Shown one piece after another: positions 1,212 to 39,963 of a stretch of DNA of 64,000 bases (its first letter is position 1; each line of letters opens with the position of its first letter). The DNA comes from Nitrososphaerota archaeon (lineage in GTDB: Archaea; Thermoproteota; Nitrososphaeria; PSMU01). Made by a program: the position numbers and the translations under genes. The stretch lies in the NCBI GenBank assembly GCA_040290255.1, contig PSMU01000001.1, positions 256,001 through 320,000 of the forward strand, written 5' to 3'. Below the pieces are notes generated by a model. That model did not search any database. It saw only the letters and a list, made by a program, of their open reading frames with translations, and was not told where the DNA came from.

Positions 1212-2450
1212 TCATAGGGCCCAGCTCTCCGCATATTTAACCTGCTCCTCGGTGAGCGCGTCGAGCGCTATGCCGTAGGCCCCGAGCGTGGCCCTGGCCA
1301 CCTCCTCATCCACCTCCTGAGGCACGGGCACGAGCCTCTTCTCAAGCCTTGGCGCTTCGTTGGCCAAGTACAGCAGCGAGAGCAGCTGGTTGGAGAAGCT
1401 CATCATCATCACCTCGGGGGGATGGCCCTCCGCGCAGACCAGGTTCACCACCCTTCCCTCGGCCAGGAGATACAGGCGCCGGCCGTCGGGCAACTCGTAC
1501 TCCGTGACGTTGGGCCTGACTTCCCGGCTCGCCCTGGCCATCCTCTTCAGCGCCCCGACGTTCACCTCCACGTCGAAGTGGCCCGCGTTGGCCAGCACGG
1601 CGCCGTCCTTCATGTTCAGCAGGTGGGGCTCATCGATGACGTTGATCTGGCCAGTGCAGGTGATGAAGAGGTCTCCCAGGGGCGCCGCCTGGCGCATGCT
1701 CATGACCTCATAGCCCTGGAGGAGGGCCTCGAGGGCCCTGATCGGGTTCACCTCGGTGACCACCACGCGGGCCCCCAGGCCCCTCGCCCTCGCGGCAACG
1801 CCCCTGCCCACCCACCCATAGCCCGCCACGACGACGACCTTTCCGGCCAGCAGCAGGCTCGTGGCCCTTAGGATGCCGTCGAGCGTGCTCTGCCCCGTGC
1901 CATATCGGTTGTCGAAGAGGAACTTGGTGCTCGCGTTGTTCACGGCTATGATGGGATAAGCGAGCCCCCGCTGCCTCTCAAGGGCCCTGAGCCGAAGCAC
2001 GCCGGTGGTCGTCTCCTCGGTGCCCCCCTCGATCCTCGCAGCATACCCCTCGCTGTGGGCCATGACGTGCGCATCCGCGCCATCGTCCACCTGCAGGCTC
2101 GGCCCCGCCCTCAGCACATTTCTTATGCAGGCCTTATACTGCTCGGTACTCTGCCCCCTCCAGGCCCAGACCTCGACCCCCTCGCTCAGGAGGTAGGCGG
2201 CGATGTCGTCCTGGGTCGAGAGAGGGTTCGCGCCCGCCAGGTAGACTTCGGCGCCGAGCTGCTGCAGGCCCTTGACGAACACGGCCGTCTCCTTGGTCAC
2301 GTGCAGGCAGACGCCCACCTTTTTTCCCTTGAGGGGGGCCTTGGGCCTCTGGTCCTCTATTATGCGCGTGAGCGTGGGCATGTGGCGCCAGGCCCAGCTG
2401 AAGTTAATGGCCCCCCTGGGCGCCAGCGACTCATCGGCTACCCTCTTCAA
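1212..2450 (-). CDS. ahcY: Adenosylhomocysteinase
   Basis: CLHVTKET, NPLSTQD, EETTTGV, FDNRYGTGQS, GYGWVGRG, NAGHFDVE, AEGHP motifs; likely TTG start at 2450 (track extends to 2540). Confidence 0.95.
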   Translation of the reverse strand: MKRVADESLAPRGAINFSWAWRHMPTLTRIIEDQRPKAPLKGKKVGVCLHVTKETAVFVKGLQQLGAEVYLAGANPLSTQDDIAAYLLSEGVEVWAWRGQSTEQYKACIRNVLRAGPSLQVDDGADAHVMAHSEGYAARIEGGTEETTTGVLRLRALERQRGLAYPIIAVNNASTKFLFDNRYGTGQSTLDGILRATSLLLAGKVVVVAGYGWVGRGVAARARGLGARVVVTEVNPIRALEALLQGYEVMSMRQAAPLGDLFITCTGQINVIDEPHLLNMKDGAVLANAGHFDVEVNVGALKRMARASREVRPNVTEYELPDGRRLYLLAEGRVVNLVCAEGHPPEVMMMSFSNQLLSLLYLANEAPRLEKRLVPVPQEVDEEVARATLGAYGIALDALTEEQVKYAESWAL

Positions 2451-29316: not shown

Positions 29317-29616
29317 ATGTCTTCTTCTAAACGCTCTCCAGCCTCGGCCTCAAAGGCCAAGAAGGCCAAAGCCGCGGAGGCCAAGTTTAACCCCCTAGAG
29401 CACGTGCTCGTGCCTAGGCATGAGATCCTGAGCGAGGAGGAGGCGAGGGAGGTGCTCCAGCGATACCGCGTGACGCCCGATAAGCTTCCATACATCCTGA
29501 GCTCGGACCCGGTGGTGAAGGCCTTGGGCGCGAAGCCCGGGCAGCTCCTGCGCATAGTGAGGAGGAGCCCGACGGCCGGCGAGAGCGTCTACTATAGGGT
29601 GGTGGTGGAGGGATGA
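29317..29616 (+). CDS. rpoH: RNA polymerase subunit Rpo5 (H)
   Basis: HVLVPRHEIL, LPYILSSDP, RRSPTAGESVYYRVV. Confidence 0.96.
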   Translation: MSSSKRSPASASKAKKAKAAEAKFNPLEHVLVPRHEILSEEEAREVLQRYRVTPDKLPYILSSDPVVKALGAKPGQLLRIVRRSPTAGESVYYRVVVEG

Positions 29617-32600
29617 CCACCGCCCCTCAGCAGGCCAAGCTCGAGACCTGGCCCATCATAAAGGCGATGCTCGCCGAGAAGGGCATCGCCAAGCAGCACC
29701 TGGACTCCTATAACGAATTCATCACGAGGGGCATTCAGAGCATCGTGGATGAAGTGGGCAAGGTGGAGATAGAGGCCCCGCCCACGCCCTACGTTATAAC
29801 CTTCGGCAGGGTGCGCCTGGAGCCCCCGCAGGTCATGGAGATTTCGGGCGCCCCCTCCAGGATCCTGCCGCTGGAGGCCCGGCTCAGGAACCTGACCTAT
29901 GCCAGCCCCCTGAAGCTCGAGCTGACCATCGAGGAGAAGGGCCAGCCCAAGACGGTCGTGGCCACGATAGGCTACCTGCCGGTCATGGTGAAGTCGAGCA
30001 TTTGTTACCTCTCCAGGATGACGCCCGAGCAGCTGATCGAGGCGGGCGAGGACCCGCTTGACCCCGGTGGCTACTTCATAATAAACGGCTCCGAGAGGGT
30101 GATCGTGGGCCTTGAGGACCTGACCCCCAACAAGGCCATCGTGGAGGTCGAGAAGGTCGGAAACTCGACCGTCTACAGGGCTAGGATTCACTCCTCCATC
30201 GTGGGCTTCCGGGCCAAGTTGGAGCTGGTGCTCAAGTCCAACGGCTCCGTGGTCGTGAAGGCCCCCCAGATGCCCACGGAGATACCCGTCGTCATCCTGC
30301 TGAAGGCGCTGGGCCTCGAGAAGGATAAGGATGTGGCGGAGGCCATTTCGCTAAGGCCCGAGGTGCAGGAGATCCTGGAGGTCTCCTTCGAGGAGGCCGC
30401 GGACGTGGCCACCACGCACGATGCGCTCGTCTACCTGGGCAACAGGCTGGCGCCCGGCATGGCCGAGGACATGAGGATCAAAAAGGCCGAGAACTTCCTT
30501 GACGTGGTCGTGCTGCCGCATATAGGCAGGGACTCCTCCTCGAGGCTGGCGAAGGCCTACTTCTTGGCCGATGCGGTGCTTAAGCTGCTGGAGCTCCGGC
30601 TGGGCTGGATAGAGCCCGATGACAAGGACCACTATGGCAACAAGGTGATTAAGCTGGCCGGCCAGCTGCTGGCGGACATCTTCAGGACGGCCTTCAGGAA
30701 CCTCGTGGCCGACATGAAGTACCAGCTTGAGAGGACGGGCAGGAGGGACTCGGGCGCCGTCGTCGCGGCCATAAGGCCCGGCATCATAACGGATAAGCTG
30801 GCCAACGCCATCGCGACGGGCAACTGGGGCAGGGGCAGGGTGGGCGTCACGCAGCTGCTCGACAGGACGAACTACATCTCCACGCTCAGCCACCTCAGGA
30901 GGATTCAGTCGCCCCTGAGCAGGAGCCAGCCCAACTTCGAGGCCCGCGAGCTGCATCCCACCCAGTTCGGGCGCGTTTGCCCGGTGGAGACGCCGGAGGG
31001 CGCCAACGTGGGCCTCGTCAAGAACCTGGCGCTCTCGGCCATCATCTCCGTGACGGTGCCCAGCGACTACGTCCTGGAGCACCTGAGGAGGCTTAGGATG
31101 GTGGACGTGGCGGAGGCCGAGGCCGAGGTCAGGACCAACTACTGGCGCGTCTTCCTGGGGGGATCCCTAGTGGGCTACGTGCAGGACGGCCACGAATTCG
31201 TGAGGAGGCTTAGGGAGCTCAGGCGCAGCGGGGAGCTTAACCCGGAGGTGAACGTGGGCATCGTCGAGCCCAAGGACCCAAGGGGCACGAGGAGAATATA
31301 CATCAACATAGGCGCCGGCAGGGTGCTGCGCCCGCTCGTCGTCGTCAAGGACGGCGCGCCGCTGCTGAGGCCCGAGCACGTGCAGGCCCTGAAGGAGGGC
31401 AGGATCAGCTGGCAGGACCTCGTGAGCCTGGGCATCATCGAGCTCCTGGACGCGGACGAGGAGGAGAGCTGCCTGGTGGCCGTGGACCAGGAACATATAC
31501 GCCCTGAGACGACCCACATGGAGCTCTATCCCCCCTCCATCCTCGGCGTGGCGGCCAGCCTGATCCCGTTCCCGGAGCACAACCAGTCGCCCAAGAACAC
31601 CTATGAGGCGGCGATGGCAAAGCAGAGCCTCGGCTTCCCGTTCTCGAACTACCAGTTCGTGCCCTACGTGCGCTACCACCTGCTGCTGTACCCGCAGACG
31701 CCGCTGACCGTCACGGAGACCTCGGAGCTCCTGAACATAGACCAGCGGCCCATCGGGCAGGAGTGCGTCGTGGCCGTCCTCTCCTACGATACCTATAACG
31801 TGGAGGACGCGATCGTGGTGAACAAGGCGGCGCTGGAGAGGGGCCTGGCCCGCTCCGTGACCTTCAGGGTCTACGAGGCGGAGGCCAAGCAGTACCTGGG
31901 CGGCATGAAGGACGTCTTCGAAGTTCCCGACCCCTCTCAGGACATCAGGGGCTACAAGGGCGAGAAGTACTATAGGTTCCTGGAGGGCGACGGCGTGGTG
32001 AGCGCGGAGGCCACGCTCGGGGGCAATGATGTGCTCGTGGGCAGGACGAGCCCCCCGAGGTTCATAGAGGAGTACACGGGCGTGCTGGAGGGCGGCGTGA
32101 CCCACAGGCGGGACACCTCCGTGAGCCTAAGGCCCAACGAGGCCGGCATCGCCGACGCCGTCTTCATCACGGAGACGGTCGAGGGCAACAGGCTCGTGAA
32201 GGTCAGGGTCAGGGAAACGAGGACGCCGGAGCTGGGCGATAAGTTCACCTCCCTGCATGGGCAGAAGGGGGTCATCGGCCTCATCGTGCCCGCGGAGGAC
32301 CTCCCCTACACGGAGGAGGGCATCGTGCCTGACATCATCATCAGCAGCCATGCCTTTCCCTCCAGGATGACCGTGGGCCAGTTCCTGGAGGCGCTCACGG
32401 GCAAGGCGGCCGCGCTGCTCGGCAAGCCCCTCGCCGCGACGGCCTTCGGCGGCGTGGACCCGGAGGAGGTGGGCAGGCTGCTGGAGGCCTATGGCTTCAA
32501 GAGGACGGGCAAGGAGGTGATGTACGATGGCAGGACGGGCAAGAGGCTGCTGGCCGAGGTCTTCGTAGGGCTTGTCTACTACCAGAGGCTGCACCATATG

Positions 32601-32972
32601 GTGGCCGATAAGCTGCACGCGAGGGCAAGGGGGCAGGTGCAGATACTCACCAAGCAGCCCACCGAGGGCAGGTCCAGGGGCGGCGGGCTCAGGTTCGGCG
32701 AGATGGAGAGGGACTGCCTCATCGCCTACGGCGCCGCGATGGCGCTGAAGGACAGGCTGCTGGACGAGTCCGATAAGACCGTCGTCTATGTATGCGAAAA
32801 CTGCGGCTTCCTGGCCTACTACGATGCGAGGAGCAGGCGCTACATCTGCAAGATCTGCGGCGACAGGGCCCGCATCTCGGGTGTGGAGATGGCCTATGCC
32901 TTTAAGCTGCTGTTGCAGGAGCTGATGAGCCTGGCCATAGCGCCCCGCCTCGTCCTTTCGGAGAGGGTCTGA
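29613..32972 (+). CDS. rpoB: RNA polymerase subunit Rpo2 (B), unsplit
   Basis: GGYFIINGSERV, CPVETPEG, HGQKG, HHMVADK, GGLRFGEMERD. Confidence 0.98.
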   Translation: MTTAPQQAKLETWPIIKAMLAEKGIAKQHLDSYNEFITRGIQSIVDEVGKVEIEAPPTPYVITFGRVRLEPPQVMEISGAPSRILPLEARLRNLTYASPLKLELTIEEKGQPKTVVATIGYLPVMVKSSICYLSRMTPEQLIEAGEDPLDPGGYFIINGSERVIVGLEDLTPNKAIVEVEKVGNSTVYRARIHSSIVGFRAKLELVLKSNGSVVVKAPQMPTEIPVVILLKALGLEKDKDVAEAISLRPEVQEILEVSFEEAADVATTHDALVYLGNRLAPGMAEDMRIKKAENFLDVVVLPHIGRDSSSRLAKAYFLADAVLKLLELRLGWIEPDDKDHYGNKVIKLAGQLLADIFRTAFRNLVADMKYQLERTGRRDSGAVVAAIRPGIITDKLANAIATGNWGRGRVGVTQLLDRTNYISTLSHLRRIQSPLSRSQPNFEARELHPTQFGRVCPVETPEGANVGLVKNLALSAIISVTVPSDYVLEHLRRLRMVDVAEAEAEVRTNYWRVFLGGSLVGYVQDGHEFVRRLRELRRSGELNPEVNVGIVEPKDPRGTRRIYINIGAGRVLRPLVVVKDGAPLLRPEHVQALKEGRISWQDLVSLGIIELLDADEEESCLVAVDQEHIRPETTHMELYPPSILGVAASLIPFPEHNQSPKNTYEAAMAKQSLGFPFSNYQFVPYVRYHLLLYPQTPLTVTETSELLNIDQRPIGQECVVAVLSYDTYNVEDAIVVNKAALERGLARSVTFRVYEAEAKQYLGGMKDVFEVPDPSQDIRGYKGEKYYRFLEGDGVVSAEATLGGNDVLVGRTSPPRFIEEYTGVLEGGVTHRRDTSVSLRPNEAGIADAVFITETVEGNRLVKVRVRETRTPELGDKFTSLHGQKGVIGLIVPAEDLPYTEEGIVPDIIISSHAFPSRMTVGQFLEALTGKAAALLGKPLAATAFGGVDPEEVGRLLEAYGFKRTGKEVMYDGRTGKRLLAEVFVGLVYYQRLHHMVADKLHARARGQVQILTKQPTEGRSRGGGLRFGEMERDCLIAYGAAMALKDRLLDESDKTVVYVCENCGFLAYYDARSRRYICKICGDRARISGVEMAYAFKLLLQELMSLAIAPRLVLSERV

Positions 32973-32973
32973 G

Positions 32974-35900
32974 ATGGCGGCCCAGACGCCTCAGGCCGAG
33001 CTGACGAAGGTCATCAGGAGGATAAAGTTCGGCGTCCTGGCGCCCAGCGAGATCAGGAAGTACTCTGTGGTCGAGATCTTCGTGCCCGAAACGTATGATG
33101 AGGACGGCTTCCCGATCAAGGGCGGGCTGATGGACCCCCGCCTGGGCACGCTCGAGCCGGGCCAGAAGTGCGAGACCTGCGGCAACACGTCCGCGAGGTG
33201 CCCCGGCCACTTTGGGCATATAGAGCTGGCCGAGGCGGTGGTGCACGTTAACTTCGTCGATGATATCTACACGCTGCTCTCCGTGACCTGCAGGTTCTGC
33301 AGCCGCATCCTGCTCCCGGAGGCCGAGATCAGGTACTACGCGGAGCTGGTGAAGAGCAGGGGCTTCGATGTGCCGGGCCTAAGGGAGGCCCTCTCGAGGG
33401 AGATCGTGGCCAAGGCCAGGAAGAGCAAGGTCTGCCCGCACTGCGGGAGGGAGCAGGCCATCATCGACCTGCAGAAGCCCTACTACTTCCAGGAGAAGGC
33501 GGAGGGAGGGGCGTATGTGAGGCTTCTGCCCTCCGCGATAAGGGAGAGGTTCGAGAGGATCTCGAATGAGGACCTGGAGCTGCTGGGCTATGACCCCAGC
33601 GCCATGAGGCCTGAATGGCTCATCCTGCAGGCCCTGCCCGTGGCCCCGCTGAGCGTGAGGCCCTCGATCACGTTGGAGACGGGAATAAGGAGCGAGGACG
33701 ACCTCACGCATAAGCTCGTGGACATCCTCAGGACGAACGCCAGGATAAGGGAGGCCAAGGCGGCGGGCTCCCCGCCGCTCATCATGCAGGACCTCATAGA
33801 TCTGCTGCAGTACCACGTGGCCACCTACTTCAATAACGAGATCTCTGGCATACCTCCCGCCCACCACAGGAGCGGCCGCCCGCTCAGGACGCTCTCGCAG
33901 AGGCTGAAGGGCAAGGAGGGGAGGTTCAGGGGAAGCCTGAGCGGCAAGAGGGTGGACTTCTCCGCCAGGACGGTCATCTCGCCCGACCCGAGCCTCGACA
34001 TCGCCGAGGTGGGCGTGCCCTATGAGGTGGCCATGAGGCTCACGGTGCCCGAGTACGTGAACGAATGGAACCTGGAGGAGATGAGGAAGCTCGTGATCAA
34101 CGGGCCCAACGTGCATCCGGGGGCCAACTACATCATCAGGCCCGATGGCGTGAAGATCAGGCTGGACTTCGTCGCGGACCGCCAGGCCCTGGCCCAGAGC
34201 CTGGGCCCCGGCTACATCGTGGAGAGGCACCTAAAGGATGGCGACGTGGTGCTTTTCAACCGCCAGCCCTCGCTGCACAGGATGTCGATCATGGCCCACC
34301 AGGTCAGGGTCCTGCCCTACAGGACCTTCCGCCTTAACCCGGCCGTCTGCCCGCCCTACAACGCGGACTTCGACGGCGATGAGATGAACCTTCACGCCTC
34401 CCAGTCGCTCGAGGCGCGGTCGGAGGAGGCGATGCTCATGAAGGTACAGGACCAGATCCTCTCGCCCAGGTTCGGCGGGCCCATCATAGGCATCACGAAG
34501 GACCTCATAACTTCCGCCTACCTGCTCACCAGGGATGACCTCTTCCTCACGAAAGAGGAGTTCGCGAACTTCGCCTGGCTGGGGGGCTATGAGGGGCCCC
34601 TGCCCCCTCCCGCCATAACAGCGCCCCGGCCGCTGTACACGGGCAAACAGCTCATCTCGCTCTTCCTCCCCCGCGGCTTCAGCTATGTGATGGCCTCGAA
34701 GTGGGGCAGGGCCCTGAGGATAAGGGAGGGCGGCGACGTGGTGGTGAAGGACGGCGAGCTGATCAGCGGCGTGCTGGATAAGAACTCCTTGGGCGCCGAG
34801 GCGCCCGACTCGCTATTGCACAGGATCGTCAAGGACTACGGAACGGAGCAGGCGCGGCGCTTCCTGAACGCGCTCATCGCCGTGCTCCGCGTCTTCCTGA
34901 CCAGATATGGCTTCTCATACGGATATAGCGACCTGGACATAGGCGAGGCGGCCCTCCGGGAGATACAGCAGGTGCTGGAGAGGCGCTATGCCCGCGTGGA
35001 CGAGCTGCTGGAGAGGTATAGGAGCGGCACGCTGGAGGTGAGCAGGGGGCTCACGCCCGAGGAGGCGCTGGAGGAGTACATCGTGGACGAGCTCACTAGG
35101 GCGCGGGATGAGGCGGGGAGGATCGCCGAGAGGCATCTTACGCTCGAAAACCCCGGCGTGATCATGGCCAGGACGGGCGCGCGCGGCTCGCTGCTGAACC
35201 TCACGCAGATGGCCTCCTGTCTGGGCCAGCAGACGGTAAGGGGAAAGCGCATCAGCAGGGGCTACAGGGGCAGGAGCCTGCCCCACTTCCCGCGCGGCGA
35301 TCCCACGCCCGACGCCAACGGCTTCATAAAGAACAGCTATAGGAGCGGCCTCACGCCCACGGAGTTCTTCTTCCACGCGATGGGGGGCAGGGAGGGCCTC
35401 ATCGACACCGCCGTGCGCACCCAGCAGAGCGGGTACATGCAGAGGAGGCTCATCCATACGCTGGAGCACCTGAGGGTGGAGTACGACTCCACGGTGCGCG
35501 ACCCGCTGGGCAACATAATTCAGTTCGTGTACGGCGAGGACGGCATTGACCCGGCCAAGAGCGATCACGGCAGGCCCGTGAACGTGCAGAGGCTCGTCGA
35601 GACGATAAGGCTGACGGACAGGGGCGAGCCTGCGAGCGAGGCCGAGGCCGCGCGGCTGCTGAAGCGCTATGAGGGGACCTTCACGCCCAGCCTGCTGGCC
35701 TCGATAAGGGAGGCCCTGGCCAAGGCCCCGCTCAGCCGGGAGGGCGTCTCTCAGCTGCTGGAGAGGATCTCGGAGCTGGTGGATAGGTCGAAGGTGGAGC
35801 CGGGCGAGGCCGTGGGCGTCGTCGCCGCCCAGTCGATAGGCGAGCCCGGCACGCAGATGACGCTCAGGACCTTTCACTATGCCGGCGTGAGGGAGATGAA

Positions 35901-36840
35901 CGTGACGCTGGGCCTGCCCAGGCTGATCGAGCTCGTCGACGCGCGCAAGATCCCCTCGACGCCCAGGATGAGGATTTACCTGGACGAGGAGCACAGGAGG
36001 GACCAGGAGAAGGCCCTGAAGCTGGCCAACCAGCTGGTCTTCACGAGGGTAGCCCACGTGATCGCCGCCGTGGCCTATAGCCCCGAGGCCGGGGAGCTGC
36101 TGCTCACGCTGAACCTGGAGGCGATGAAGGAGAAGGGCGTGGGCATCGAGGACGTGCTGAGGGTCGTGGGCGGCGCCAAGAGAAAGGCCGAGGCCATGGA
36201 TGAGCGGACGATCAGGGTCGAGGTGGGGCCGCTGGGCCCCCAGGAGCTTCACAACGTAAAGCAGAAGATCCTCCATTCCAAGCTGAGGGGCGTGCCGGAC
36301 ATCACGGGCGTGACGGTTACGAGGAAGAAGCGCTCCGAGGATCCGCTGCTCATCGATGAGGAGGAGTGGGTGATCGAGACGGCCGGCTCCAACCTCGCGC
36401 AGGTGCTGCGCGTGCCCGGCGTGGACCCCAGCCGCGTGCTCACCAACAGCATCTATGAGGTCTACACCGTGCTGGGCATAGAGGCGGCCCGAGAGGCGCT
36501 CGTGAGGGAGATCTCGGGCACGCTGGAGGAGCAGGGGCTCGAGGTGGACAGGAGGCATATACTGCTCGTCGCGGACCTGCTCACGGCCAAGGGCCTGGTG
36601 CAGCCGGCGGGCAGGCACGGCGTCGTGGGCTCCAAGGCGAGCGTGCTGGCGAGGGCGGCCTTCGAGATCACCATACCCGTGCTCTCCGAGGCGGCCGTGA
36701 GGGGCGAGGTGGAGGAGCTCAAGGGCGTCACCGAGAACGTGATCGTGGGCCACATCATACCCGTGGGCACGGGCATGGTGAACATCATGATGGACCTCGG
36801 TGGTCTGGTTGGAGGAGCGGGAGCTTCAGAGGCTGCTTAG
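32974..36840 (+). CDS. rpoA: RNA polymerase subunit Rpo1, fused A'+A''
   Basis: CPGHFGH, NADFDGD, bridge helix, AAQSIGEPGTQMT and ARAAFE in one 1288-aa ORF. Confidence 0.98.
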   Translation: MAAQTPQAELTKVIRRIKFGVLAPSEIRKYSVVEIFVPETYDEDGFPIKGGLMDPRLGTLEPGQKCETCGNTSARCPGHFGHIELAEAVVHVNFVDDIYTLLSVTCRFCSRILLPEAEIRYYAELVKSRGFDVPGLREALSREIVAKARKSKVCPHCGREQAIIDLQKPYYFQEKAEGGAYVRLLPSAIRERFERISNEDLELLGYDPSAMRPEWLILQALPVAPLSVRPSITLETGIRSEDDLTHKLVDILRTNARIREAKAAGSPPLIMQDLIDLLQYHVATYFNNEISGIPPAHHRSGRPLRTLSQRLKGKEGRFRGSLSGKRVDFSARTVISPDPSLDIAEVGVPYEVAMRLTVPEYVNEWNLEEMRKLVINGPNVHPGANYIIRPDGVKIRLDFVADRQALAQSLGPGYIVERHLKDGDVVLFNRQPSLHRMSIMAHQVRVLPYRTFRLNPAVCPPYNADFDGDEMNLHASQSLEARSEEAMLMKVQDQILSPRFGGPIIGITKDLITSAYLLTRDDLFLTKEEFANFAWLGGYEGPLPPPAITAPRPLYTGKQLISLFLPRGFSYVMASKWGRALRIREGGDVVVKDGELISGVLDKNSLGAEAPDSLLHRIVKDYGTEQARRFLNALIAVLRVFLTRYGFSYGYSDLDIGEAALREIQQVLERRYARVDELLERYRSGTLEVSRGLTPEEALEEYIVDELTRARDEAGRIAERHLTLENPGVIMARTGARGSLLNLTQMASCLGQQTVRGKRISRGYRGRSLPHFPRGDPTPDANGFIKNSYRSGLTPTEFFFHAMGGREGLIDTAVRTQQSGYMQRRLIHTLEHLRVEYDSTVRDPLGNIIQFVYGEDGIDPAKSDHGRPVNVQRLVETIRLTDRGEPASEAEAARLLKRYEGTFTPSLLASIREALAKAPLSREGVSQLLERISELVDRSKVEPGEAVGVVAAQSIGEPGTQMTLRTFHYAGVREMNVTLGLPRLIELVDARKIPSTPRMRIYLDEEHRRDQEKALKLANQLVFTRVAHVIAAVAYSPEAGELLLTLNLEAMKEKGVGIEDVLRVVGGAKRKAEAMDERTIRVEVGPLGPQELHNVKQKILHSKLRGVPDITGVTVTRKKRSEDPLLIDEEEWVIETAGSNLAQVLRVPGVDPSRVLTNSIYEVYTVLGIEAAREALVREISGTLEEQGLEVDRRHILLVADLLTAKGLVQPAGRHGVVGSKASVLARAAFEITIPVLSEAAVRGEVEELKGVTENVIVGHIIPVGTGMVNIMMDLGGLVGGAGASEAA

Positions 36841-37120
36841 GACCGCCTTCTCGACGGGCAGGGTCACCCTGGGCCTGAAGGAGTCGCTGAAGAGGATCCA
36901 GGGCACAAAGCTGCTCGTGGTCGCCAAGCGGGCCCCCGAGTGGATAAGGGCCCGGGCCCTCGAGAGGGCCAGGGCGGCGAAGGTGCCGCTCTTCAGCTAT
37001 GAGGGCACGCCCATAGAGCTGGGCCAGCTGCTGGGCCTGCCCTATAGGGTCAGCGTGATGGCCATACGCCACCCCGGCGAGGCCGACCTGGCCCCCCTGC
37101 TCGGGGAAGCGGCGGCATGA
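36800..37120 (+). CDS. rpl30e: 50S ribosomal protein L30e
   Basis: TGRVTLG, GTPIELGQLLGLPYRVSVMAI..PG; conserved operon position. Confidence 0.9.
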   Translation: MVWLEERELQRLLRTAFSTGRVTLGLKESLKRIQGTKLLVVAKRAPEWIRARALERARAAKVPLFSYEGTPIELGQLLGLPYRVSVMAIRHPGEADLAPLLGEAAA

Positions 37121-37560
37121 CGGAGATAAAGCTCACGGCCGAGGAGCTGCGCATGATGTCCCTGATGCAGGCCATCTCGGGCGTCAGCCCCAGGGACTGC
37201 GTGATCGACGAAAGGTGGAACAGGCTGATCTTCGTGGTGAATAAGGAGGATATGGGCAGGGCCATAGGCAAGAGGGGGGCCAACGTGCAGCAGCTGGCCA
37301 AGCTCACGGGCAAGGAGATAGAGATCGTGGAGTTCTCGCCGGACCCCAGCGTGCTGCTGAGGAACGCCCTGGGCGAGAAGTTCGTCTCGGAGGTGCGCGT
37401 CACCGAGGACAGGGAGGGCAGGAGGATCGCCGTGGTGGTGACCGACAGCAGGAACACGAAGTTCGTCAGGGGGAGGGAGGGGAGGAACCTGCACAAGGCC
37501 AAGCTGCTGGGCGAGCGATACTTTCAAATAAGCGACCTTCAGCTCGTGGGGAGGGGCTAA
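37117..37560 (+). CDS. nusA: Archaeal NusA
   Basis: [14 protein letters not shown] motif, GREGRNL. Confidence 0.93.
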
Positions 37561-37997
37561 TGAGCAAGGGCGCCAACGGCCTCTTCGCGGCCAGGAAGCT
37601 GGTGCTGATGAGGAAGAGGTTCCGGTGGTCGGAGAAGTGGTACAGGAGAAGGGTGCTGAGGCTAAAGGAGAAGGTGGACCCGCTGGAGGGCGCGCCGCAG
37701 GCCAAGGGGATCGTGCTCGAGAAGGTGGGCATCCCGTGCCGCCAGCCCAACTCCGCGGTGAGAAAGTGCGTGCGCATACAGCTGGTGAAGAACGGCAAGC
37801 AGGTCACCGCCTTTGTGCCCTGGGATGGAGGGCTCAACTTCATCGATGAGCACGATGAGGTGCTGGTGGAGGGCATAGGGGGGCCCATGGGCCGCAGCTA
37901 CGGCGACCTGCCGGGGGTGAGGTGGAAGGTGGTGGCCGTGAACGGCGTATCGCTCAAGGAGCTCATCCTGGGCAAGAAGGAGAAGCCCAAGAGGTAG
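37560..37997 (+). CDS. rps12: 30S ribosomal protein S12
   Basis: [28 protein letters not shown]. Confidence 0.97.
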
Positions 37998-37998
37998 T

Positions 37999-38595
37999 AT
38001 GGCCCTGAAGCTCTTCGGCAAGTGGGACTTCGAGGGGGTAACGGTGAACGACCCCGGCCTAAAGCGCGTCATAAGCCTGAAGCCCGTGCTCGTGCCCCAC
38101 TCCTTCGGCAGGCATGAGCACAGGCCCTTCGGCAAGGCCGCGGTGAACATCGTGGAGCGGCTCGTGAACTGGATGATGCACTTCGGCCGCTCCTCCGAGA
38201 GGGTCCCCAAGAATACGGGCCGCATGGGGGGCAAGAAGGCCAGGGCCATACGCATCGTCCAGGCCGCCTTCGAGCTCATCCACATCAAAACCGGCGAGAA
38301 CCCCATCCAGGTGCTGGTGAGGGCCATAGAGAACGCGGCGCCCAACGAGGACACCACGAGGATCGTCTACGGCGGCACCGTCTACTATGTCTCCGTGGAC
38401 GTCTCGCCCTTGAGGAGGGTCAACCTGGCGCTCAAGCACCTCGCGGATGGCGCGAGGGCCGCCTCCTTCAAGGCGCCCATCGGCATCGAGGAGGCGCTGG
38501 CCAACGAGATAATGCTCGCCGCGAGGGGCGACCCCAACAGCTATGCGATCAGGAAGAAGCATGAGATAGAGCGCATCGCCCTCGCGAGCCGCTGA
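37999..38595 (+). CDS. rps7: 30S ribosomal protein S7
   Basis: [43 protein letters not shown]. Confidence 0.97.
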
Positions 38596-38637
38596 GCCTG
38601 AAAACGTATAAATACCTTCTGAAGCGTAGCGCCGGCG

Positions 38638-39963
38638 ATGTCCAAGAGCGCTAAGCCCCACCTGAACCTGGTGGTCACGGGCCACGTGGACCACGGCAAG
38701 TCCACGCTCATGGGCCACCTCCTCTTCGACCTGGGCGTGGTGGACCAGAGGACGCTGGAGGAGTACAAGCAGCAGGCGGCTAAGTTCGGGGCCGGCGAGA
38801 CGTTCATGTATGCGTGGGTGCTCGACACGCTTAAGGATGAGAGGGAGAGGGGCGTCACCATCGAGCTCTCCTTCCAGAAGTTCGAGACGGACAAGTACTT
38901 CTTCACGCTCATCGATGCGCCGGGGCACAGGGACTTCGTGAAGAACATGATCACGGGGGCCTCGGAGGCCGATGCCGCGGTGCTAGTGGTCTCCGCCAAG
39001 AAGGGCGAGTTTGAAGTGGGCACGCAGCCCGGGGGCCAGACGAGGGAGCACGCCTTCCTGCTGAAGACGCTGGGCGTGGACCAGCTCATCTGCTGCATCA
39101 ACAAGATGGACGATGATACGGTGAAGTGGAGCAAGGAGAGGTATGAGGAGTGCAGGAAGCAGATGGAGGACCTGCTGAAGAGGGTGGGCTACGACGTTAG
39201 GAAGATCCCCTTCATACCCACCTCGGGCCTCAAGGGCGATAACCTGGTAAGGCGCTCGCAGAACATGGGCTGGTACAACGGGCCCACGCTCTATGAGGCG
39301 CTCGACCAGCTGCAGGTGCCGCCCAAGCCGGTGGATAAGCCTCTGAGGATGCCCATACAGGACGTCTACACGATCACGGGCGTGGGCACGGTGCCCGTGG
39401 GCAGGATAGAGACGGGGAGGATGAAGGTGGGCGACACGGTCATCATCAACCCCCCCGGCCTGACGGCTGAGGTAAGGTCGATCGAGACGCACCACACGCC
39501 CATAGAGGTGGCCGAGGCGGGCGATAACGTGGGCGTGAACCTGAAGGGCGTGGCGAAGCAGGACCTGAGGCGCGGCGACGTCATCGGGTCCGTGAACAAC
39601 CCGCCCACCATCGCCAAGGAGTTCACGGCCCAGATCTTCGTCATCTACCACCCCACGGCCATCGCGGCGGGCTATACGCCCGTCCTGCACGCACATACCG
39701 CGCAGGTGGCCACGCAGATCGTGGAGATCCTGGCCAAGATCGACCCTAGGACGGGCGCGGTCGTGGAGGAGAAGCCCAGGACCATAAAGACCGGCGACGC
39801 GGCGCTCGTGAAGCTGAGGCCGCTGCGCCCGCTCTGCATCGAGACCTTCAAGGAGTTCCCGGAGATAGGCAGGTTCGCGATCAGGGACATGGGCACCACG
39901 GTCGCGGCGGGCGTGGTGAGGGAGATCACGGAGAAGGCCCAGCCGCTGCTGGCGAAGGCCTAG
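38638..39963 (+). CDS. tuf: Elongation factor 1-alpha
   Basis: GHVDHGKST, ERERGVTI, DAPGHRDF, NKMD, GRFAIRDMG. Confidence 0.98.
   Translation: MSKSAKPHLNLVVTGHVDHGKSTLMGHLLFDLGVVDQRTLEEYKQQAAKFGAGETFMYAWVLDTLKDERERGVTIELSFQKFETDKYFFTLIDAPGHRDFVKNMITGASEADAAVLVVSAKKGEFEVGTQPGGQTREHAFLLKTLGVDQLICCINKMDDDTVKWSKERYEECRKQMEDLLKRVGYDVRKIPFIPTSGLKGDNLVRRSQNMGWYNGPTLYEALDQLQVPPKPVDKPLRMPIQDVYTITGVGTVPVGRIETGRMKVGDTVIINPPGLTAEVRSIETHHTPIEVAEAGDNVGVNLKGVAKQDLRRGDVIGSVNNPPTIAKEFTAQIFVIYHPTAIAAGYTPVLHAHTAQVATQIVEILAKIDPRTGAVVEEKPRTIKTGDAALVKLRPLRPLCIETFKEFPEIGRFAIRDMGTTVAAGVVREITEKAQPLLAKA

Follow-up and report, generated by a model that had tools for sequence, protein, structure and literature searches.

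The described systems closest to the gene treated here are canonical archaeal Rpo2, yeast Rpb2 with its engineered mutants, and the second subunits of plant Pol IV and Pol V. The gene is rpo2, encoding the second-largest RNA polymerase (RNAP) subunit of an archaeon assigned to the Nitrososphaeria, and it lies in the window, by which we mean the whole analysed stretch of 64,000 nucleotides (contig PSMU01000001.1, positions 256,001 to 320,000). Its product, P0001, has the same length, the same seven domains and the same operon as the canonical Rpo2 of Nitrososphaeria and Thermoproteota (solved chains 8cro_B, 4qiw_B and 2waq_B). However, around the nucleotide site it differs from canonical Rpo2 in having Lys for R766, Glu for N822, Thr for G832, Thr-Ser-Leu for Ala-Ser-Arg, and Ser-Ser for N1013-P1014 (yeast Rpb2 numbering). 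Among these differences, the Ser-Ser pair and a changed G832 site are common to a sister lineage, whereas the rest are confined to the 90%-identity cluster of P0001.

The residues concerned have been studied in yeast Rpb2. In the available excerpts of PMC3243610, R766 and R1020 contact the triphosphate of the nucleoside triphosphate (NTP) and are described as universally conserved, and K979 and K987 hold the RNA 3′ phosphate. The accessible portion of PMC3533926 describes the metal-B role of E836 and D837, predicts that R766, N834, E836, D837 and N1013 together with Rpb1 D526 form a switch around the magnesium ion B (Mg-B), and expects R983 to be the ionic partner of E1028. The same portion (Kireeva et al. 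2012) reports that yeast R766A/Q and R1020K/Q are lethal, that N1013A is slow with higher fidelity, that R983A stalls or arrests more readily, and that R678C in the β subunit of Escherichia coli causes minor defects. P0001 thus resembles the yeast mutants R766A/Q, R983A and N1013A in that the same residues are altered. Yet the yeast mutants are engineered single changes that are lethal, slow or prone to arrest, whereas the changes in the window are natural, combined, of other chemistry (Lys, Leu and Ser), and located in an enzyme on which the cell depends. R766K itself is absent from the mutants described in that portion of the paper.

The second subunits of plant Pol IV and Pol V, NRPD2 and NRPE2, offer a natural parallel. 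In the available text of Haag et al. 2009 (PMC2605557), the surroundings of the catalytic centre and of the hybrid-binding region in Pol IV/V subunits have lost many residues that are invariant elsewhere, and metals A and B are kept; P0001 likewise has normally invariant residues replaced around its catalytic centre. By contrast, NRPD2 is dispensable and exists as a paralogue alongside Pol II, whereas the rpo2 of the window is the only copy found. Moreover, Pol IV keeps its phosphate-binding arginines R713, R714 and R954 in the excerpts of PMC11343019, unlike K661 of P0001. The residue at the R983 site of NRPD2 is not named in the accessible parts of PMC2605557, PMC2774164 and PMC11343019. P0294 and P0260, which have Met at this site, were considered as NRPD2 and rejected, being Pol II-like. 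Pol IV/V second subunits may carry Met there (GDKFSSMHGQKG). A full-text literature search for four motif strings bearing on this parallel found no papers.

The positions of the gene, its changed residues and its retained active-centre residues in the window are as follows.

29613..32972, + strand, rpo2, unsplit second-largest RNAP subunit of 1119 residues (P0001), sole copy found, seven Rpb2 Pfam domains
31593..31595, + strand, K661 (AAG) in HNQSPKNT, equivalent to yeast Rpb2 R766, from DNA reading and PDB alignment
31761..31763, + strand, E717 in GQE (usually GQN), approximately Rpb2 N822, from DNA reading
31791..31793, + strand, T727 (ACC) in DTYNVEDA, usually Gly, equivalent to Rpb2 G832, from DNA reading
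31803..31808, + strand, E731-D732, metal-B ligands (Rpb2 E836/D837), kept, from DNA reading
32241..32267, + strand, K877 to K885 of GDKFTSLHGQKG, with K877 and K885 (Rpb2 K979 and K987) kept
32247..32249, + strand, T879 in GDKFTSLHGQKG, replacing A981
32253..32255, + strand, L881 (CTG) in GDKFTSLHGQKG, replacing R983
32343..32348, + strand, S911-S912 (AGC AGC) in the DIIISSH motif DIIISSHAFPSRMT, replacing N1013-P1014
32364..32366, + strand, R918 of PSRMT (Rpb2 R1020, the second NTP-phosphate contact), kept
32388..32390, + strand, E926 (Rpb2 E1028), kept despite Leu at the site of R983, its predicted ionic partner

The initial annotation had reported four variant motifs between 31570 and 32370. 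All four are in the DNA where it had placed them, the last one ending at 32372, 2 bases further on, and N717E is a sixth change that it had overlooked. Its assignment of the Arg of HNQSPRNT to R766, an NTP-phosphate contact, is confirmed by the available text of PMC3243610 and by the PDB alignment. That alignment pairs residues 628-1114 of P0001 with 733-1217 of Rpb2, which gives K661 = R766 and E731/D732 = E836/D837. In addition, K877/K885, G883/G886, S917-R918 and E926 correspond to K979/K987, G985/G988, S1019-R1020 and E1028 as numbered in the accessible parts of PMC3533926 and PMC3243610; from this match of residue pattern, L881 corresponds to R983 and S911 to N1013.

P0001 belongs to the Rpo2 family by its overall make-up. 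It matches archaeal RNAP B chains in the PDB with E=0 and has the Pfam domains PF04563, PF04561, PF04565, PF04566, PF04567, PF00562 and PF04560 above cut-off, that is, all Rpb2 domains. As in canonical archaeal Rpo2, the metal-B Glu-Asp pair, the two Lys of GDK...KG (K979/K987), the R1020 equivalent, the GEME motif (as FGEMERD) and the four-Cys Zn ribbon (C1061, C1064, C1079 and C1082) are present; GEME is near-invariant according to the available text of PMC2774164. Of the two NTP-phosphate arginines expected in the family, R918 is there and position 661 is Lys, with the charge conserved, which is a deviation inside the Rpo2 family and no ground for exclusion. Since N729, E731, D732, K877, K885, R918 and E926 are all kept, the polymerase is expected to be active, with Lys supplying the charge at 661, the switch altered and the ion pair of the pore region lost.

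The changes are confined to a narrow lineage. P0001 is 57-64% identical to its class relatives (40 relatives were used for comparison, the nearest level being the same class), of which 29 of 29 have Arg, Ala-Ser-Arg and Asn-Pro at the corresponding sites; the Gly site is Gly in 24 and Cys in 5. We then aligned 327 other Rpo2s to that of the window, mostly from Thermoproteota and made up of database hits, class relatives and 80 metagenome loci, with proteins outside 1000-1300 residues excluded. In this set, site 661 is Arg in 326 and Lys in one, site 717 Asn in 326 and Glu in one, site 879 Ala in 324, Val in two and Thr in one, and site 881 Arg in 325, Leu in one and Thr in one (P0095). K661, E717, T879 and L881 are all confined to P0004, the sister species of the window. 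Site 911 is Asn in 325 and Ser in two (P0004 and P0005), and site 912 is Pro in 324 and Ser in three (P0004, P0005 and P0078). By contrast, site 727 is Gly in 300, Ser in 17, Cys in 8, Thr in one and Ala in one; the Gly of GYNxED varies across the set and is therefore not near-invariant in this phylum. The description of the altered motifs as near-invariant accordingly fits the sites of K661, T879, L881 and S911/S912 and fails for the Gly before YNxED. The alignment also bears out that the changes are lineage-specific and are not widespread in TACK Rpo2. Residues 866-930 were used as the query in a word-indexed search of 5.8 billion proteins, which gave 926 scored candidates; among the best 120 examined, Thr-Ser-Leu occurs in P0004 only, and Ser-Ser in P0004 and P0005 only. 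A metagenome scan for DNA of these two nearest lineages found nothing nearer than 62% identity.

Across more distant polymerases, the picture was drawn from 150 representatives of 50%-identity clusters, taken from 22441 hits. Site 661 is Arg in 145 and Lys in one of the 146 aligned, site 717 is 93% conserved, and site 727 is Gly in 142 of 147. Site 881 is Arg in 127, with about ten true non-Arg residues (Cys, Met, Thr, Leu, Val and Lys), and E926 is retained in each of the nine listed ones in which the non-Arg residue at 881 is genuine. Site 911 is Asn in 130 and Ser in four, and site 912 is Pro in 127 and Ser in five. Site 879 is Ala or Ser across polymerases, which weakens A879T as an oddity. 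D732 is Asp in 147 of 147 aligned representatives, and K877 is Lys in 146 of 147. Every single change of P0001 has a precedent somewhere among the 150. Seven apparent non-Arg calls at 881 are intein insertions. An insertion immediately after GDKF is seen in P0051, P0057, P0062, P0283, P0313, P0327, P0334, P0342, P0358 and P0365, and some homologues with a GDKF insertion are about 1618 residues long and have an intein Pfam domain. Judged from sequence, these insertions look like inteins within the catalytic motif, mimicking substitutions in alignments.

The substitutions were acquired stepwise. The P0005 cluster is a sister lineage of six sequences, 68-70% identical to P0001, which has Ser-Ser, Ala at 727 and T699 together with the canonical R661, N717 and Ala-Ser-Arg. 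In a maximum-likelihood tree of 52 rows (LG+G4), rooted by assumption on the most divergent family, f3, the rpo2 of the window branches with its taxonomic class. Its cluster is joined to the P0005 cluster at 100% SH-aLRT, with a shared stem of 0.24 and a stem of its own of 0.36. As the sister lineage has Ser-Ser and an altered Gly site yet keeps Arg and Ala-Ser-Arg, the changes accumulated over at least two successive branches. The tree places Asn-Pro to Ser-Ser and the change at the Gly site earlier, and Arg to Lys, Asn to Glu, Ala to Thr and Arg to Leu later; the Ala at 727 of the sister fits a putative route in which single base changes turned Gly into Ala and then Ala into Thr. There is hence no support for the coordinated divergence proposed in the initial annotation, because part of it predates the split from a sister that keeps Arg and Ala-Ser-Arg. 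The P0005 lineage also deviates at three other near-universal Rpo2 sites, 737, 937 and 973.

We also compared the number of changes with that in other lineages, and the pattern resembles drift. In 38 class relatives 289 columns are invariant, and at these P0001 has 14 private changes over a path of about 0.66, compared to 0-6 in other families over stems of 0.22-0.5 and 55 in the outgroup f3. After correction for branch length, the value for P0001 is about 1.3-1.8 times that of the other families having any such change. Of the 289 columns, 115 are universally conserved, and four of the 14 private changes are among them, which is no enrichment. At 127 near-universal sites, each at least 90% conserved among representatives, P0001 deviates at six, one of them class-wide. 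The corresponding deviations have a median of 2 and a maximum of 7 in 325 close Rpo2s, and a median of 4 and a maximum of 22 in 101 length-filtered diverse representatives. The deviation count is within the range of other polymerases and therefore gives no pointer to a new enzyme class. The maximum of 7 belongs to P0005 itself; in view of this top count and of its own deviations, the whole clade seems tolerant of changes at conserved sites.

The gene is single-copy within rpoH-rpo2-rpo1, at the head of an operon in the order rpoH-rpo2-rpo1-L30e-NusA-S12-S7-EF1a. The neighbours identified by Pfam stand in the standard order, in agreement with the earlier assignment to the canonical rpo operon.

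29317..29616, + strand, rpoH (Rpo5/Rpb5 C-terminal domain), first gene of the operon, Pfam PF01191, E 1.6e-31
32974..36840, + strand, rpo1, fused A′+A″ largest subunit of 1288 residues (P0002), five Rpb1 Pfam domains
36800..39963, + strand, L30e, NusA-like KH protein, S12, S7 and EF-1alpha, downstream in the operon, Pfam hits

RpoH, as called from the first ATG, has an N-terminal extension of about 23 residues rich in Lys, Ala and Ser, and its Pfam match begins at residue 24. The window has a G+C content of about 65%, and the host is a draft genome of 1.21 Mb in 9 contigs, 91% complete and 1.1% contaminated.

Rpo1 has a canonical NADFDGD motif, trigger loop and bridge helix. The fused rpo1 was considered as a novelty and rejected, being class-wide (it is matched over its full length in 39 of 40 class relatives) and already described for Thaumarchaeota in the available text of PMC4084955. 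Rpo1 has five private changes, compared to 2-9 in other non-outgroup families and 48 in f3; no partner co-change was found in it, and the Asp equivalent to D526 is retained. Beside NADFDGDEMN (P0002 452-519), it reads HASQ and GITKD, whereas most Nitrososphaeria have HVPQ and GAIRD; the Rpo1 of the divergent family f3 is similar to that of the window, with HALQ and GFTKD or GFGKD. The genome has a single TFS gene of 110 residues (G000:C3:116924-117040; locus L160, open reading frame 1489-1821, minus strand) with an ordinary acidic DE hairpin. This hairpin reads GGDEP, the usual form being SADEP. The gene adjoins a PCNA-like open reading frame, as judged by eye.

The genome is a metagenome-assembled draft in 9 contigs, which leaves room for sequencing or assembly errors or a chimeric bin as the source of the variants, an extremely improbable explanation in our view. 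The frame is open over 1119 codons. Lys, Thr, Thr-Ser-Leu and Ser-Ser are found in every one of the five distinct full-length sequences, from several sources, that make up the 90% cluster of P0001; these sequences form two groups that differ at 73 residues. The stretch 31400-32500 is present in seven public runs from four studies, none of the listed runs being recorded as RNA; those with near-identical DNA are labelled soil metagenome (three studies) or hot-springs metagenome (one study). Contigs from four of the seven runs, of which X1 may be the source of the window while X6 and X7 resemble one data set, show 13 base differences: 11 are synonymous, the others are H831Y and A932T, and none falls in a motif codon. 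In one compared run the contig depth is about 120. Assembly error, an objection that the initial annotation had itself raised, is thus excluded, as the five cluster sequences and the contigs of other studies all keep the variant codons. Almost all of these present-day differences are synonymous, so the gene is now under purifying selection. The same observation argues against a specialised or decaying paralogue of the Pol IV/V kind that would exist beside a canonical Rpo2. The plant enzymes, with their replaced invariant residues, make such a paralogue conceivable, as does a genome that is just 91% complete. Nevertheless, there is one Rpo2 match in the genome, it sits in a canonical operon adjoining the only Rpo1 match, and it branches with its class. 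We consider a paralogue very improbable, and P0001 is not taken to be Pol IV/V-like because only one copy is found.

P0001 is probably the sole, working second-largest RNAP subunit of an uncultured, deep-branching Nitrososphaeria (Thaumarchaeota) lineage, its second shell remodelled by compensated changes that became fixed in the lineage. On a long isolated branch, N1013S/P1014S and a change at G832 were fixed first, and R766K, N822E, A981T and R983L later. The replaced residues would make up a second shell around the metal-B/NTP site and the pore, and catalysis would rely on the direct residues that are kept: the metal-B Glu-Asp, the Lys pair of GDK...KG, R1020, GEME, the Zn ribbon and the canonical active site of Rpo1. 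Lys would keep the charge contacting the NTP phosphates, and the substitutions would be mutually tolerated, the lineage now maintaining them by purifying selection. The substitutions themselves, their fixation, the order in which they appeared, the single copy and the purifying selection now acting are shown, whereas the compensation and every kinetic consequence are what we infer: by analogy with the yeast mutants, an enzyme without R983 and N1013 should differ modestly in elongation rate, pausing or backtracking, and fidelity, and should not be a different kind of polymerase. Alternatively, the set may have been jointly selected for NTP handling, Mg-B/pyrophosphate release, backtracking, fidelity, or insensitivity to inhibitors of the NTP site or secondary channel, a tentative and rather unlikely explanation. 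Several points speak for such selection and weigh against compensated remodelling. Lys at the R766 position is very rare, with P0004 alone among the 327 and one of 146 representatives, and a scan of 185,579 species genomes for a degenerate HNQSPKNT DNA motif found 33 places, none within Rpo2, although it sees the exact peptide context only and may omit the genome of the window and its near kin. The lethality of R766A/Q and R1020K/Q in yeast means that tolerance of Lys here is not trivial. None of the 150 representatives has more than three of the five deviations, compared to five of five in the window, and no compensating partner was identified. R766 and N1013 belong to one predicted Mg-B switch, which leaves room for a joint selected change, and R983 lies in the pore region; yeast mutants at these residues alter speed, fidelity and arrest in the available text of PMC3533926. 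The catalytic Rpb2_6 domain, with 134 of the 289 columns, contains ten of the 14 private changes (hypergeometric p=0.049, post hoc). In addition, all changes are kept in two species-level groups 73 residues apart, and the codon changes have no single G+C direction, so composition pressure is probably not the explanation. On the other hand, the changes were acquired over at least two branches and not at once, universal sites hold no excess of private changes, and the overall deviation count is inside the range of relatives. Moreover, Rpo1 shows no partner change, its own five private changes being within the range of other families, TFS is present with its ordinary acidic hairpin, and no inhibitor or phenotype is known for the lineage. 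Compensated drift is therefore more likely than adaptation. Quite improbable is the further proposal that joint selection has rewired the Mg-B/NTP "switch" and the pore of the lineage's only RNAP (K/R766, S/N1013, L/R983 and E/N822), giving it distinct catalytic behaviour. Altogether, the initial annotation is partly supported: the changes are real, lineage-specific and no artefact, and the gene lies in the canonical rpo operon. It went too far in their coordination, in the near-invariance of the Gly and in the clustering by the catalytic centre, where ten of 14 in Rpb2_6 is a borderline, post hoc excess. The altered fidelity, NTP handling or inhibitor resistance that it had suggested may follow from the changes.

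If the switch were indeed rewired, the enzyme might synthesise more slowly and more accurately, with pyrophosphate release and backtracking altered, or alternatively resist a natural inhibitor of the NTP site or secondary channel, and the lineage would be a natural experiment with residues considered fixed in every cellular polymerase. Under either reading, a free-living archaeon has Lys in place of R766 in its only polymerase, alongside changes at R983 and N1013, which makes it a natural trial of residues described as "fixed". As the order of the substitutions is known from the sister lineage, they provide an ordered set for models of NTP positioning, Mg-B release, fidelity and backtracking. 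The enzyme is thus a natural active-centre variant of use to polymerase enzymology, and probably not a new kind of polymerase.

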